Source: a virus (Duplodnaviria; Heunggongvirae; Uroviricota; Caudoviricetes). From it: a stretch of 4,640 nucleotides of DNA. The position numbers and the translations under genes are program-made. The notes under the pieces are model-generated. The model was not told the origin of the DNA and searched no databases. It saw only the letters and a list, made by a program, of their open reading frames with translations. The stretch lies in the IMG/VR virus record IMGVR_UViG_2541047778_000009; one strand, 5' to 3'. Each line of letters starts with the position of its first letter. Position 1 is the first letter of the stretch. Below are positions 1 to 4,640 of the stretch, piece by piece.

Positions 1-149
1 AAGGCTGGGCCATACTCCTCCGGCAGAAGCAGAAAAAGCTTATTATGCTTCCATCGGAAACGATGATCTGGCAGCCTGAGTTCACAGATAAAACACTCTC
101 CAGGAAACCCGGGGCGGTTCATCTGGGTACATTAGATGCTTTTTGCTGA
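1..149 (+). pseudogene. Truncated inverted duplicate of the 5' region of the large gene at 3492..4640; frame is open from the window edge, ATG at 45, stop at 147..149
   Basis: Plus-strand translation from the ATG at 45 gives [26 protein letters not shown], identical to the first 26 residues of the minus-strand ORF 3492..4622. It then diverges (LGTLDAFC) and stops exactly after the repeat boundary at 122/123. The frame is also open upstream to position 3. Confidence 0.35.
27..122. repeat. Left arm of a perfect inverted repeat (partner 4545..4640)
   Basis: Manual comparison: the reverse complement of 4545..4640 is identical to 27..122 (96 of 96). Identity breaks at 123 (left) versus 4544 (right). 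The right arm runs to the window edge, so the repeat may extend further; positions 1..26 would then pair with sequence beyond 4640. Confidence 0.9.
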
Positions 150-657
150 CTAGCATATTTACAGCATCACGAAGCGGAGTCCTGTCATCAACAGATGTTT
201 TCTTCCGTGCATTTGCTGCCTCTCCCTTTGTCCAGTAGTCATGCAGCACAGTAAAGCATTCTTCCTGGTACTGAATCAGTTTATCGCGGATGTCAGCACG
301 AACTTTCTCAGGGTTGATGCTGAACAGCCATCCATTTAACTTCTTCAAAGGAAGGCAGAGTAGCTTACGAAGCTTACCATCAGCGGCAACCATGTTCATA
401 TGAACACAGTTGAATTTGCTAATCTGCTTCATGAGTTTTGTTTGCTGCGTTGACCAGCTCATTCCGAGGTTTTCAACGATTGGCTTCATCGCAACATATG
501 CAACTCCGGCAGCCATGGCGGTGATAATTTGCTGACCGTTGAATGGCACGTAAGAGGTGTTCACTGCTTCTAAAATTGCTATACTATTCATGTTGGTTTT
601 TCTCCACGGATTTACCGACAACCGAAGCCCTGACTGTTCCAGCAGTTGGGGCTTCAC
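82..657 (-). CDS. Phage antirepressor-like protein (P22 Ant N-terminal domain-like), possibly C-terminally truncated
   Basis: 191-codon ORF with a GTG start at 657; an alternative ATG at 591 ([21 protein letters not shown]...) lies about 10 nt after a GGAG. The segment FNGQQ...[14 protein letters not shown]...[13 protein letters not shown] resembles phage antirepressor N-terminal domains from memory (not searched). It sits directly downstream of the arc-like gene on the same strand, as ant does in the P22 immI operon. The last ~12 codons and the stop are encoded inside the inverted repeat (85..122). Confidence 0.55.
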
Positions 658-823
658 TGTTTTGATTTCTTTGCCGCATCAAGCATCACTTCTGAAAACG
701 TGCGCTTGCCACTGAATACTCTTTCTCTTCTCAATTTTTCGTTCGTGCCAAATGATTCGCCATGAACAAAATTTGGTCTTAAAATGGTAATCGCAATCTC
801 TTTGACTACTGCATCCAAGCGAA

Positions 824-976
824 TCACACCGTTACCCCCTCTCTCTTCAGGCTGTCTATCAGGCGCTTGATAACCTCTGAGTTAAACGACCTGCACTCTT
901 CCTTTGCCCTGCTACCGATAGCATCCTTTAACGACTGCGGCATCCTTACCAAAATCTTACTTATTTCTTTCTCCAT
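824..976 (-). CDS. arc: Arc-like ribbon-helix-helix transcriptional repressor (50 aa)
   Basis: From the ATG at 976, preceded by GGAGGG 4 nt upstream on the minus strand. The protein MEKEISKILVRMPQSLKDAIGSRAKEECRSFNSEVIKRLIDSLKREGVTV aligns along its length with P22 Arc (FNLRWPREVLDLVRKVAEENGRSVNSEIYQRVMESFKKEG), including the N-terminal beta-strand and the GRSVNSE motif. The ORF-track extension to 1012 begins at a TTG with no ribosome-binding site and is not preferred. Confidence 0.8.
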   Translation of the reverse strand: MEKEISKILVRMPQSLKDAIGSRAKEECRSFNSEVIKRLIDSLKREGVTV

Positions 977-1014
977 GTTACCCTCCACGCAAACAACTCT
1001 TTTCGAATACAAAA

Positions 1015-1067
1015 GATAGCAAAGTGAGTATATCTAGTCAAAATTTTTTTGCATACACTTTGCTATC
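1015..1067. promoter_or_regulatory. Candidate operator: perfect 12-bp inverted repeat arms (GATAGCAAAGTG at 1015..1026, CACTTTGCTATC at 1056..1067) separated by a 29-bp AT-rich spacer, within the divergent arc-like / mnt-like promoter region
   Basis: Arms are exact reverse complements by direct reading. They lie in the 114-bp gap between the divergent starts at 976 (minus) and 1091 (plus), where P22 carries the overlapping Pant/Pmnt promoters and the Arc and Mnt operators. Promoter hexamers were not confidently assigned. Confidence 0.55.
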
Positions 1068-1090
1068 AAATTGAATACCAAAGGTGTTAT

Positions 1091-1339
1091 ATGGCAAAGG
1101 GTGTGTCAATTTCTCCAACTACGGTAAGAATCCCTGAATCTTTACGCGAGGCTCTTGCTGTCAGAGCATCAAAAAATGGTCGCTCTGTTAACTCCGAGAT
1201 CGTCATGATTTTGCAAGCCGCGATTGATGAAGATAGGTCGCCAAAGTCAGTTGAGTCATTTGCTCAGCAAGAAGCTGATAAATTCAAAGAGGCGCTACTT
1301 GAGACGCTAAAGACCATGTATGCTAAGGATGAAAAATAA
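1091..1339 (+). CDS. mnt: Mnt-like ribbon-helix-helix transcriptional repressor (82 aa)
   Basis: From the ATG at 1091, preceded by AAGGTG 4 nt upstream. The protein MAKGVSISPTTVRIPESLREALAVRASKNGRSVNSEIVMILQAAI...FKEALLETLKTMYAKDEK matches P22 Mnt (83 aa) in length, the N-terminal RHH region (FNFRMPMEVREKLKFRAEANGRSMNSELLQIVQDAL) and the C-terminal helix (LKDLYKK). It is divergent from the arc-like gene as in P22. The ORF-track start at 1049 is a TTG extension and is not preferred. Confidence 0.8.
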   Translation: MAKGVSISPTTVRIPESLREALAVRASKNGRSVNSEIVMILQAAIDEDRSPKSVESFAQQEADKFKEALLETLKTMYAKDEK

Positions 1340-1875
1340 TGCTGCACACAATTCATTTCTTATGCCCTGTTAACACTGCCACTGTTGGGCAACTTCAGAA
1401 CCACTGTCTCACCGCATTATCTCAAGGCGCAACTGAATTAAATATCCATATATCAAGTCAGGGAGGGGAAACTGCTGCTGGCTTTACTGCGTATAACTTT
1501 CTTAAGTCACTCCCTGTTACCGTTAGAACTCACAACATAAGCAATGTTGAATCCATAGCTAATATCGTTTTCCTGGCTGGCTCAGAACGTTTCGCAAACC
1601 CATTATCAAGATTCCTGTTACATCCTCTATTATGGTGCTTTGCCTCCCCAGCCGCCGACCATGCCAGATTGAGAGAGTACGGGAAATGCCTCGATAACGA
1701 TCTTGATCGCTTCGTTGAGACGTTCAATATCGACATCGGAACCCATATTAGGTGGGCATCCCTGATAGCAGACTCGACCATTTTGGATGCTAACAAGGCT
1801 CTTGAGCATGGCATAATTAATTCCATAAAAACTGCAAGGCTGGCATCCAATCAGGCAAACTGGTGGGTTGTTTGA
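1339..1875 (+). CDS. ClpP-fold (S14-like) serine peptidase-like protein, 178 aa, translationally coupled to the mnt-like gene
   Basis: The ATG at 1339 overlaps the mnt-like stop (TAATG). Manual alignment to E. coli ClpP: NIHISSQGGETAAGFTAYNFL against [21 protein letters not shown]; a candidate nucleophile Ser72 (codon 1552..1554, context NVESIAN against GQAASMG); His95 (codon 1621..1623, LLHPLL against MIHQPL); a candidate Asp145 or Asp150; and C-terminal ANKALEHGIINSI against APEAVEYGLVDSI. Homology is judged by eye only. Confidence 0.55.
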   Translation: MLHTIHFLCPVNTATVGQLQNHCLTALSQGATELNIHISSQGGETAAGFTAYNFLKSLPVTVRTHNISNVESIANIVFLAGSERFANPLSRFLLHPLLWCFASPAADHARLREYGKCLDNDLDRFVETFNIDIGTHIRWASLIADSTILDANKALEHGIINSIKTARLASNQANWWVV

Positions 1876-1899
1876 TGGGTAAATCATGATTACTCCTTA

Positions 1900-1926
1900 T
1901 AAAAAACCCACCTGACGGTGGGTTTA
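1900..1926. terminator. Bidirectional intrinsic terminator between the convergent genes at 1339..1875 (+) and 1924..2373 (-)
   Basis: Stem ACCCACC (1906..1912), loop TGAC, stem GGTGGGT (1917..1923). On the minus strand the stem is followed by six T (complement of AAAAAA at 1901..1906), a strong terminator for the YafO-like operon. On the plus strand it is followed by TTT only, so it is weaker there. The hairpin overlaps the minus-gene stop at 1924..1926. Confidence 0.7.
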
Positions 1927-2373
1927 GTCAAACATAGTGTTTCTAAAGTCTCTCGCATACCCTGCTAACACTCTCATTCTATTATGATTGTTAGCAGACA
2001 TGTGAGCTACAGGATGAAAAAGAGCAATCAATGAATACCTGTTCTCATCAAAAAGATTTTGTGCATAAACGAGAGCGGTATTGGATGTTTTATGCCACTG
2101 CAACTTTTGCGGTGTGCTGATATCTGTGCCATTTTTTATTGGCTCAAATTTATTTTCACCAATTGCTAAATGAAGGTGCATAAGGCCTGCATCTTCAATA
2201 TCAGGAGGTCGATGATAAGAGGTGTCTCTGCCAAAATAGCTGGGCAACGTTCCCGTAGACTTGTAGATGATAAAATCATCTACAAGTGTTTGTTTTAAAT
2301 CAGGAAACTCAACAAAAACCGGGGAGAAAAAATAGTCAAAACTATCCTGATTATATTCCACGGTTACTTGCAT
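1924..2373 (-). CDS. YafO-family type II toxin-like protein (putative ribosome-dependent mRNA interferase), 149 aa
   Basis: ATG at 2373 with GAGG 6 nt upstream. Motifs DDFIIYKSTGTLPSYFGRD, HLHLAIGEN, ALVYAQNLFDE and LIALFHPVAHMSANNHNRM parallel the E. coli YafO sequence as recalled from memory (DFISYKRDGVLPDIFGRD, HIHLANEN, HLVYCQGAFDE, LLIAILKPEPHKLARDNNQM). It is the second gene of a tightly spaced two-gene operon (8-nt gap). Confidence 0.6.
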   Translation of the reverse strand: MQVTVEYNQDSFDYFFSPVFVEFPDLKQTLVDDFIIYKSTGTLPSYFGRDTSYHRPPDIEDAGLMHLHLAIGENKFEPIKNGTDISTPQKLQWHKTSNTALVYAQNLFDENRYSLIALFHPVAHMSANNHNRMRVLAGYARDFRNTMFD

Positions 2374-2381
2374 GTTTTACC

Positions 2382-2948
2382 TCAGTGGAAGTTACCAGAG
2401 TGAAACACACGAGTCCCGTGCTCAGCAAGCGCACGCAAACCAGCCATATCTACGGAACTATCAAAAACAACCGGAACACATGAGCGTTGTTTAATAAGAC
2501 TATTCAGGTTGGTTACGGCAGATCTGGCATCAGCAACAACGATATAGATATCTCTTGCGATCTCTTTAAAATCAGCAGAAGCTTCTTTGAATACCGATTT
2601 CATTGCCCCTTCAAGTCCTCTCAATTGATGCTCTATCAATCGAGACTTTTCTGGTTCAATGATAGACAACACATTGTCTACATTCTCATCGGTAGCGTTT
2701 GCAAGAACACGATAAGCGTATTTCAGCATTCGAGACAATTCTTTAATCGAAGACACCGCCTCATGAAGCTCATCATTAGCCCGTTCACTGCTGAATGAGG
2801 ATTGATGGTAAGCGTGCTGAACGTTATCAGTAACAACCACCTCACAACTGAACGCAGAAGCTTGCTGTAATAGCAAACCTATTGCGACTCCAGCTTTGGC
2901 AGCGTTCAAGCTAAACATTTCATCAATCCCATTAGTCTCATTGCTCAT
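2382..2948 (-). CDS. Hypothetical protein (188 aa), upstream operon partner of the YafO-like toxin; candidate non-canonical antitoxin
   Basis: ATG at 2948, preceded by a near-perfect Shine-Dalgarno AAGGAGG 5 nt upstream. The ORF-track start at 2978 is a TTG with no ribosome-binding site. Stop TGA at 2384..2382, with the SD of the downstream toxin overlapping it. No family recognised by eye; predicted mostly helical with an acidic central region. It is not YafN/RelB/DinJ-like in size or sequence. Confidence 0.6.
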   Translation of the reverse strand: MSNETNGIDEMFSLNAAKAGVAIGLLLQQASAFSCEVVVTDNVQHAYHQSSFSSERANDELHEAVSSIKELSRMLKYAYRVLANATDENVDNVLSIIEPEKSRLIEHQLRGLEGAMKSVFKEASADFKEIARDIYIVVADARSAVTNLNSLIKQRSCVPVVFDSSVDMAGLRALAEHGTRVFHSGNFH

Positions 2949-3015
2949 ACAAACCTCCTTCTTATCGGAGATTATCAATAGCTATGCATCCATTGAATAC
3001 ACGCTATGCGCAATA

Positions 3016-3044
3016 AGTTTACGTCACGTGATATCATTATGCAA
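3016..3044 (-). promoter_or_regulatory. Candidate sigma70 promoter for the 188-aa/YafO-like operon with an 8-bp palindrome (TCACGTGA, 3024..3031) in the spacer
   Basis: Minus strand reads TTGCAT (complement of 3039..3044), a 17-nt spacer, then TAAACT (complement of 3016..3021). The perfect palindrome TCACGTGA lies in the spacer, and GCTATGC recurs at 2981..2987 and 3003..3009 downstream of it. This matches the layout of an autoregulated toxin-antitoxin promoter but is judged by eye only. Confidence 0.3.
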
Positions 3045-3123
3045 CCACCGTTCTATCACCGACTAACTTTACTCCCACTCCTATACATCATCTGGTATCC
3101 TGCGCAAAACTAAGGAGGTTGGT

Positions 3124-3474
3124 GTGAATGCTCAGTCTGTCATCATGGTTTTCCTTGGGCTGATTGTCGCAAAACTATATCCAGACTGGTGGAAAGGGGC
3201 ATTAGCTACTGTCGCCATCTATTTGCTTTTATCCATCGTTAAGCGATCACTCGCTGAGACCGTAAATCAAGCAAAACGTTTCTCATTTAAGAGTTTAATA
3301 AACTATGTTACTGGGCTTATTTTTTGCCTTTCAATTCTGATCGCTTCGGCTTTTTTGCCCGTATCAATAGCTAATTTTTTTGGCGCACCATATGAGGTAG
3401 GTTATCTATTCTCTGTTTCCTGTCTTGCCATTGCTCTTCTTTACCTGTGGACGAGATCAAAGAATAAAAATTAG
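3124..3474 (+). CDS. Small integral membrane protein (116 aa, about 4 predicted TM helices); candidate superinfection-exclusion (SieA-like) or immunity protein
   Basis: GTG start at 3124 with AGGAGG 5 nt upstream. Hydrophobic stretches: VIMVFLGLIVAKLY, ALATVAIYLLLSIV, LINYVTGLIFCLSILIASAFLPVSIANFFG and VGYLFSVSCLAIALLYLW. It is convergent with the large gene at 3492..4640 and ends 17 bp from its stop. Its position relative to mnt/arc/ant matches sieA in P22. Confidence 0.6.
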   Translation: MNAQSVIMVFLGLIVAKLYPDWWKGALATVAIYLLLSIVKRSLAETVNQAKRFSFKSLINYVTGLIFCLSILIASAFLPVSIANFFGAPYEVGYLFSVSCLAIALLYLWTRSKNKN

Positions 3475-3486
3475 CCATCCGTGGCT
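3473..3486. terminator. Short hairpin between convergent genes (AGCCA-TCCG-TGGCT); possible weak terminator for the minus-strand gene
   Basis: 5-bp stem with a 4-nt loop, read directly. On the minus strand it is followed by AATTTTTATT. The stem is short, so this is a low-confidence call. Confidence 0.25.
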
Positions 3487-3491
3487 GCCAG

Positions 3492-4640
3492 TTATTGAGC
3501 TTCTTTTTGTGATGCCTGTGCGACTCTGGTGAGCGATTGTGTGACCGTACTGATCGCTCTGTCATATGCTGTGCTACCTTTTGGCGTATTTGCCAGACGT
3601 AACAAGGCATTTCGTATAACAGGGCTTTCGTATGCCTTCGCAGCTCCTCCTACGACACCAGCAGCAGGAACAACAAACGCAGCCGTTTTTAGCATCCCCG
3701 CTAATACTGCTGCGTTTATGATGCCACCACCAACTAACAATCCATAAAGCTGCTGACCATTTAAGTTTTGAACGTTCGCTTTTGCCGCGTGTCTTGTATC
3801 GTTGAGGTATTTAATAACGCCGTCCAGTTCCTTTCCATGTACGCCTTTAAAGAAAGTTGCTGATTGCTTCCTGTTCCGGTGTAACGCATTAATAAACTTT
3901 TCAACACTAATATTTCCAGACGGATCAGTCGCCTTATCTACAGCATTCTGAACTATGGCTGCTCGTGCGTTTTGCCTACCATTGTCATCCAGAAGCCTGT
4001 AAAGCTGAGAACGTTCTGATGGGTTTTGGCTAAAAACGAGTTTTGTTACATCCTCAGGTGTAGCCTTGCCGCTGGCTATTGCCTTTTGAACGCGCGTTCT
4101 TCCCATCATGTCATTGAATCTAGCCCATGAGCGATCAACCCTAGACATATTGGCAGCTTCTTCTGAGCCTAGTTTTTGGGATACTGCTTTTTTCATATCC
4201 GCTGTATATGCCTTGTAGACAATATCGCTGGCTTTCTGGAGCGTGTCTTTATCAACAGTCTCGTTTGAATTCATGAACCGCTTTCGAAGGTCAGTTCTGT
4301 TTTCTCTCGCCAGACGCAGGTCATTGGGTCCGCTGGTGATATCGTCTTTAAATTGCTGCAAGACTTTTACCGCGGCTCTATCCTGAGATTTGCCCGGGCG
4401 GCTTAACACGGCAATCTGATTGTCGATAGCTTTTACCGTGTTTGAGAGATCGACAGGGGTATCCCCCATAGCGTCAATTATGCGGTTATATCGCTTTCCT
4501 GCTGCCTCAATGAATTTTTGTTGCCCTTTAGTCGCAGATTCATAATGAACCGCCCCGGGTTTCCTGGAGAGTGTTTTATCTGTGAACTCAGGCTGCCAGA
4601 TCATCGTTTCCGATGGAAGCATAATAAGCTTTTTCTGCTT
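3492..4640 (-). CDS. Large helical, charged protein with a C-terminal hydrophobic Gly/Ala-rich helical hairpin; probably 5'-partial; candidate phage DNA-ejection protein (P22 gp16-like position) or membrane-active toxin
   Basis: ORF track gives 376 aa from the ATG at 4622, but the frame has no stop between 4623 and the window edge (KQKKLI) and no convincing SD precedes the ATG, so the true start may lie outside the window. The hydrophobic segment LYGLLVGGGIINAAVLAGMLKTAAFVVPAAGVVGGAAKAY is encoded around 3630..3750. The first 26 codons after the ATG lie inside the inverted repeat. No family recognised by sequence; the function is inferred from composition and synteny. Confidence 0.7.
   Translation of the reverse strand, partial: KQKKLIMLPSETMIWQPEFTDKTLSRKPGAVHYESATKGQQKFIEAAGKRYNRIIDAMGDTPVDLSNTVKAIDNQIAVLSRPGKSQDRAAVKVLQQFKDDITSGPNDLRLARENRTDLRKRFMNSNETVDKDTLQKASDIVYKAYTADMKKAVSQKLGSEEAANMSRVDRSWARFNDMMGRTRVQKAIASGKATPEDVTKLVFSQNPSERSQLYRLLDDNGRQNARAAIVQNAVDKATDPSGNISVEKFINALHRNRKQSATFFKGVHGKELDGVIKYLNDTRHAAKANVQNLNGQQLYGLLVGGGIINAAVLAGMLKTAAFVVPAAGVVGGAAKAYESPVIRNALLRLANTPKGSTAYDRAISTVTQSLTRVAQASQKEAQ
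4545..4640. repeat. Right arm of the perfect inverted repeat (partner 27..122)
   Basis: See the left arm. Identical over 96 bp in inverted orientation, and it reaches the window edge. Confidence 0.9.

Follow-up and report, generated by a model that had tools for sequence, protein, structure and literature searches.

Two inward-facing IS629 ends in a CUS-3-like prophage

The window that we analyzed is a stretch of 4,640 nucleotides (nt) from a Caudoviricetes record, IMGVR_UViG_2541047778_000009. From left to right, it holds the end of one copy of the insertion sequence (IS) IS629, a truncated antirepressor gene (ant'), the remainder of a P22-type immI region, several cargo genes, the 3' fragment of a DNA-ejection gene of the P22 gp16 family, and the end of a second IS629 copy in the opposite orientation. 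A repeat search of the window returned a single long inverted repeat, whose arms at positions 27 to 122 and 4545 to 4640 are 96 nt long, 100% complementary, and spaced 4,422 nt apart, just as the original prediction had described them; the other repeats were 14 to 21 nt long and at chance level. A perfect 96-nt match cannot arise by chance in 4.6 kb. We are highly confident that the repeat represents the inner right-end tips of two complete, identical, and oppositely oriented IS629 copies, each of which edges a deletion in a decaying CUS-3-like prophage at argW. The original prediction had not recognized the repeat as an insertion sequence.

Sequence comparison placed the window at positions 8001 to 12640 of locus L001 in the genome of SCU-116, and the window is also identical to sequence in MS20673. 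The original prediction had suspected that the window edges hid the true length of the repeat, and this was indeed the case: past both edges the arms continue into full 1,310-nt IS copies, giving an inverted repeat of 1,311 nt at 100% identity in the source genomes. The additional nucleotide is a chance 1-bp extension, the pair formed by 122 (t) and 4545 (a), and the element itself ends at 121 and 4546. The window holds only right-hand ends, namely, the last 121 nt of copy 1 (1 to 121, plus strand, with the transposase reading left to right) and the last 95 nt of copy 2 (4546 to 4640, minus strand, with the transposase reading right to left). In copy 1, the orfB stop codon lies at 77 to 79 and the right terminal inverted repeat at about 97 to 121, ending in CCCGGGGCGGTTCA. 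In SCU-116, the whole of copy 1 occupies L001 6812 to 8121 (1,310 nt; transposase coding sequence, 6866 to 8079) and copy 2, 100% identical to it, occupies L001 12546 to 13855, so that the right ends of both copies, downstream of orfB, face inwards.

The 1,310-nt element begins with TGAACCGCCCCGGGAATCCTGGAGA and ends with TCTCCAGGAAACCCGGGGCGGTTCA, forming imperfect terminal inverted repeats of the TG...CA type in which 23 of the first 25 positions match. Both copies are annotated in RefSeq as an IS3 family transposase with a joined coding sequence, a -1 programmed frameshift, and an ALIL pseudoknot, an annotation that we adopted as it stood. The element is 99.5% identical over 1,310 nt to copies that depositors annotated as "IS3 family IS629" in Stx-phage records (LC567824 and LC567828), and a record of phage 21 int holds an insertion that matches it at 100%. 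A full-text literature search with the IS terminal sequence TGAACCGCCCCGGG gave no match. When 5,426 complete Escherichia coli genomes were searched, parts of the window matched 46,141 places in 4,166 genomes; the arms thus bear the signature of a multicopy mobile element. The element thus has in common with IS629 (isoforms IS1203 and IS3411) its length of 1,310 bp, orfA and orfB linked by a programmed frameshift, TG...CA ends, duplication of 3 bp where an insertion is simple, and deletions beside resident copies (PMC3271280; PMC9943667). In E. coli O157, however, IS629 is found in Stx/lambdoid prophages, whereas here it sits in a CUS-3-like prophage of K1-type extraintestinal strains. We attribute the absence of mismatches between the arms to their being recent copies of one active IS, and not to gene conversion or a dedicated inversion system.

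The order of features in SCU-116 is tRNA-Arg, intS, an acyltransferase gene, a tail-fibre remnant, IS, the inner segment, IS, early genes, torI, and dsdC. The host of the two IS copies is a decaying CUS-3-like (P22-type) E. coli prophage at argW, with the site and gene content of CUS-3 from K1 strains. CUS-3, a P22-like prophage with neuO and an endosialidase tailspike between argW and dsdC, occupies the same site, from tRNA-Arg/intS to torI/dsdC (PMC9659370); in intact relatives an acyltransferase gene next to intS accompanies an endosialidase tailspike, and content has been lost in many strains. CUS-3-like phages between argW and dsdC are known to be decay-prone, although the study that described this did not ascribe the loss to IS629 (PMC9659370), whereas the end points described here map to IS629 copies.

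As the original prediction had expected, comparison with related prophages decided the question. The intact prophage of S88 matches window positions 122 to 4545 at 100% in one piece, and it has a full-length Ant of 300 amino acids and a gp16 of 670 amino acids. About 35 of the complete genomes match only positions 122 to 4545, as a single piece at 100%. When the junctions were mapped to S88, the inner segment proved to be collinear with it and in the ancestral orientation.

The acyltransferase gene by intS (L001 5358 to 6136; equivalents in L003, L007, and L008) is annotated at lengths of 336 to 1,050 nt, and its BLAST pieces overlap. By position and from the literature this gene is neuO, and the variation in length fits its known phase-variable repeat tract.

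Deletions at the IS junctions

Junction coordinates are given here against the intact S88 prophage (locus L005). The left IS joins position 3411 to position 6374, a loss of 2,962 bp comprising most of the tailspike gene, namely, its 5' part, and the 3' end of ant. This copy joins the tailspike 3' remnant to ant codon 156. What is left of the antirepressor gene, ant' (82 to 591, minus strand), consists of codons 1 to 156 of 300 (122 to 591) followed by 13 IS-derived codons and the stop (82 to 121). Its N-terminal 156 residues are identical to those of S88 Ant, it matches Pfam P22_AR_N (E=1.2e-45), and PGAP calls it a pseudogene with a missing C-terminus. At the nucleotide level, ant is 81% identical to P22 ant and 98% identical to epsilon34 ant. 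The original prediction had noted that ant is short next to P22 Ant (about 300 residues) and that the repeat supplies its last 12 or so codons together with the stop. Both points were correct, the exact count being 13 with the stop at 82 to 84, and one and the same event truncated the gene and brought the repeat to this site. A truncated plus-strand copy of the large gene had also been proposed at the left end. The open reading frame (ORF) exists (45 to 149, plus strand, 34 amino acids, stop at 147 to 149, no Pfam match), but it starts within IS629 and reads out over the junction at 121/122, and so it is a by-product of the IS junction rather than a gene copy. For the left junction we also considered an origin from one ancestral IS insertion in the tailspike gene, followed by deletions on both sides.

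The right IS joins position 10797 to position 38205. The 27.4 kb lost between them comprise the 5' part of gp16 and all head, portal, terminase, lysis, replication, and immC genes, and the right IS copy joins gp16 codon 321 to the early-left genes. The remaining gp16 fragment (3492 to 4545, minus strand) covers codons 321 to 670 of 670; its 350 residues and stop are identical to S88 gp16 from 321 to 670, its native first 320 codons are lost, and PGAP calls it a pseudogene with a missing N-terminus. It is read as part of a fused large ORF (3492 to 4622, minus strand), in which an ATG at 4620 to 4622 and 26 codons from IS629 precede gp16 codon 321, so that the N-terminal 26 residues are IS-derived. 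The original prediction had placed the ATG and the first 26 codons of the large gene within the repeat. These coordinates hold, but the sequence is IS629 that is open in frame and not a native gene start, and the claim that the repeat duplicates the 5' end of the large gene fails, since the arms are IS629 ends and the true 5' part of gp16 is gone. What looks like the beginning of the large gene, like the tail of ant', is IS sequence that happens to stay open in frame over the junctions.

Small differences were seen at the right junctions among otherwise identical genomes. At the inner-right junction (window 4543 to 4545), Eco_23-2678 lacks "taa", a 3-bp difference; at the outer-right junction, just beyond window position 4640+1215, SCU-116 lacks "gg", a 2-bp difference. 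These 2- to 3-bp differences between SCU-116, MS20673, and Eco_23-2678 suggest small-scale nibbling at the IS ends, or sequencing error.

Simple insertions of IS629 in relatives carry 3-bp target-site duplications. In FY26 and E10 such insertions have hit the tailspike gene, the beginning of the clpP-like gene, and the gene that lies upstream of gp16, with duplications at S88 positions 4896 to 4898 and 7616 to 7618 (FY26) and 7617 to 7619 and 12155 to 12157 (E10); the insertion in intS of B20123 has its duplication at 834 to 836. At the window's own two copies, by contrast, there is no matching duplication (cca-IS-tct on the left and taa-IS-agt on the right), as is expected where an IS adjoins a deletion. 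IS629 is reported to make duplications of 3 to 4 bp, which were present at only 21 of 47 sites (PMC3271280), and deletions adjacent to IS629 range from a few nucleotides to >40 kb (PMC9943667).

The two insertions at the 5' end of the clpP-like gene (window 1364 to 1367; S88 7616 to 7619) are independent IS629-type events that lie 1 bp apart and are oppositely oriented. The element there is the identical copy in FY26 and a 96.3%-identical subtype in E10. This site may be an insertion hot spot.

Other relatives bear on the order of events. AH19K002 shares the left junction of the window, but its gp16 is intact and its second IS is not the one seen in the window, implying that the left event is older than the right. 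In FDAARGOS_1301 the junctions join 3102 to 6076 and 10890 to 32785, while B20123 has the same inner junction at 10890 and an outer junction at 31018 instead of 32785. A common inner junction with differing outer junctions points to nested deletions that extended from an IS already in place. The likeliest route to the losses described here would be deletion beside such a resident copy, and recombination between directly repeated IS copies would be an alternative. The original prediction had offered, as one option, the scar of an inversion or duplication that truncated ant. The truncation is real, but its cause is an IS-associated deletion, and the order of the segment is collinear with S88.

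At the shared left junction, AH19K002 carries a tandem duplication (L009 8122 to 8147) of the final 26 nt at the right end of IS629 (CTCTCCAGGAAACCCGGGGCGGTTCA). An abortive transposition product and an assembly error are the candidate explanations.

Alternative explanations, including inversion

Three points weigh against our interpretation that two IS629 copies edge deletions in a decaying prophage. The element owes its name IS629 to the annotation that depositors gave to 99.5%-identical copies, the end points alone do not settle the mechanism of deletion, and the exact arrangement is found in only three genomes, which leaves room for low-frequency flipping in populations. Against this background we weighed four other accounts.

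One is that the immI/cargo island was kept by selection, through toxin-antitoxin addiction or a superinfection benefit, while IS629-associated deletions removed its flanks, and that the inverted IS pair could also cause low-frequency flipping of the island. The island in this sense comprises arc, the mnt-like and clpP-like genes, the yafO-like toxin gene with its 188-amino-acid partner, and a small membrane protein. It is spared by both of two deletion series whose end points differ, one of the SCU-116 type and one of the FDAARGOS_1301/B20123 type. Of the 158 genomes that have the neuO end of the prophage, however, only 49 keep the module. This gives no hint of obligatory retention, and we regard selection for the island as unlikely.

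A second account, raised in the original prediction as an invertible segment, is that the 4.4-kb segment actively inverts, either as a programmed invertase switch or by regular RecA-mediated flipping between the 1.3-kb IS arms. Identical inverted repeats of 1,310 bp are a competent substrate for homologous recombination, and in B20123 two other IS629 copies bracket an inverted segment of ~26 kb (intS' to emrK'), with the 3-bp duplications swapped exactly as expected from recombination. Several observations nevertheless make this account very improbable for the window. Annotation and Pfam revealed no invertase gene in or beside the segment, and the search for a nearby recombinase that the original prediction had suggested found no dedicated one among ant', arc, the mnt-like, clpP-like, and yafO-like genes, the hypothetical genes, the gp16 fragment, and the IS transposases; the intS gene at a distance of 3 kb encodes the integrase of the prophage. 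Each arm is a whole 1.3-kb IS copy and not a short recombination site, and in all three genomes with the arrangement the segment has kept its ancestral orientation with respect to intS and dsdC. A synthetic flipped junction, composed of the outer-left flank, the IS, and the reverse complement of the inner-right end, occurred in 0 of the 5,426 complete genomes, the best coverage of 78% corresponding to the ordinary right junction. Moreover, flipping would alter no intact gene. Low-level RecA-mediated flipping may occur in cultures and would be silent.

A past inversion of the window's segment, detectable through swapped duplications, was also tried and rejected: cca/tct and taa/agt have no reverse-complement relation. 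Compared with known systems, the locus shares with IS-bounded inversions by homologous recombination its inverted identical IS copies, and the B20123 inversion lies in this very region, but the window's own IS pair is not inverted in any available genome. The likeness to Hin/Gin/Cin/Pin, the fim switch, and shufflons is a superficial one, that of inverted repeats bracketing a segment; the short sites, dedicated recombinase, and expression change of those systems do not apply here.

The inverted segment of B20123 (NZ_CP142930.1; IS629 copies at L010 2359 to 3668 and L011 9679 to 10988) contains the 3' part of intS, a prophage remnant, dsdCXA, emrY, and the 3' end of emrK. The two halves of intS have 3 bp (ATC) in common, and the flanks at emrK read ATG and CAT. 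This fits homologous recombination between two simple inverted IS629 insertions, and it illustrates that inverted IS629 copies in this region can yield real inversions.

We give very little credence to a third account, in which IS629-immI-IS629 is a composite transposon that moved in as a unit. The cargo is flanked by two copies of one IS and includes a toxin gene and a protease-like gene, but it is collinear, at 100% identity, with the prophage native to that argW site, the outer flanks (cca and agt) show no direct duplication, and the module lay in a prophage at argW in every genome inspected. A plasmid search for the inner module produced only a mislabelled chromosome and short arc/ant fragments. 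Finally, a foldback or misassembly from collapsed or mis-joined IS repeats, a classic consequence of IS copies and also among the original options, can be dismissed almost outright, as three independently sequenced complete assemblies from three countries (USA, Australia, and St Kitts) have the same arrangement and the outer flanks on both sides make sense as prophage sequence and map to S88.

IS629 occurs here in a known prophage, and the arrangement is already present and annotated in public genomes. It amounts to ordinary mobile-element wear and not to a new switch, and recognizing it as such keeps the module from being wrongly called phase-variable or invertible. It also corrects the annotation: the large gene and the short ant are both pseudogenes truncated by an IS, and the perfect repeat is what the window edges leave of a mobile element. 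A minor point is that IS629 is documented here as driving the decay of CUS-3 prophages in K1-type E. coli.

The immI region and cargo genes

The inner segment is an immI region of the P22 type, with ant and the sar antisense RNA, arc, and a divergent mnt-like gene, in which ant is truncated. The sar antisense RNA (592 to 658, plus strand; Rfam RF00262, 83.9 bits against a gathering score of 43, E=2.8e-17) is wholly conserved despite the truncated ant. An Arc-family repressor gene, arc (824 to 976, minus strand), was assigned from annotation and from its match to Pfam Arc (E=5e-12), as was the mnt-like ribbon-helix-helix repressor gene (1091 to 1339, plus strand; Pfam Arc, E=9.5e-11) that diverges from it. 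Between arc and ant lies a gene for a hypothetical protein of 57 amino acids (654 to 827, minus strand; WP_000620145.1) with no Pfam or PADLOC match, an extra gene that P22 is not known to have at that position.

The clpP-like gene (1339 to 1875, plus strand; Pfam CLP_protease, E=2.2e-11) begins at the mnt-like stop, and its product of 178 amino acids covers positions 37 to 180 of the 182 in the Pfam profile. It is present at 98 to 99% identity in the unrelated E. coli phages phiv205-1, EC.P3, PhiR12, and E212, and for this reason it looks like a mobile cargo gene. Next to the gp16 fragment is a gene for a hydrophobic hypothetical protein of 109 amino acids (3145 to 3474, plus strand; WP_011703616.1) with no Pfam match. 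A PADLOC search of the cargo genes returned no defence-system match apart from a marginal one (E=0.004) of a hypothetical 188-amino-acid protein to ZorA, which we disregarded. The gene for this protein (2382 to 2948, minus strand; WP_000064337.1; no Pfam match) lies upstream of a YafO-family toxin gene (1924 to 2373, minus strand; Pfam YafO_toxin, E=3.4e-22), of which it may be an unusual antitoxin or partner. Together, the pair (1924 to 2948, minus strand) occupies the spot where P22 has sieA-type cargo.

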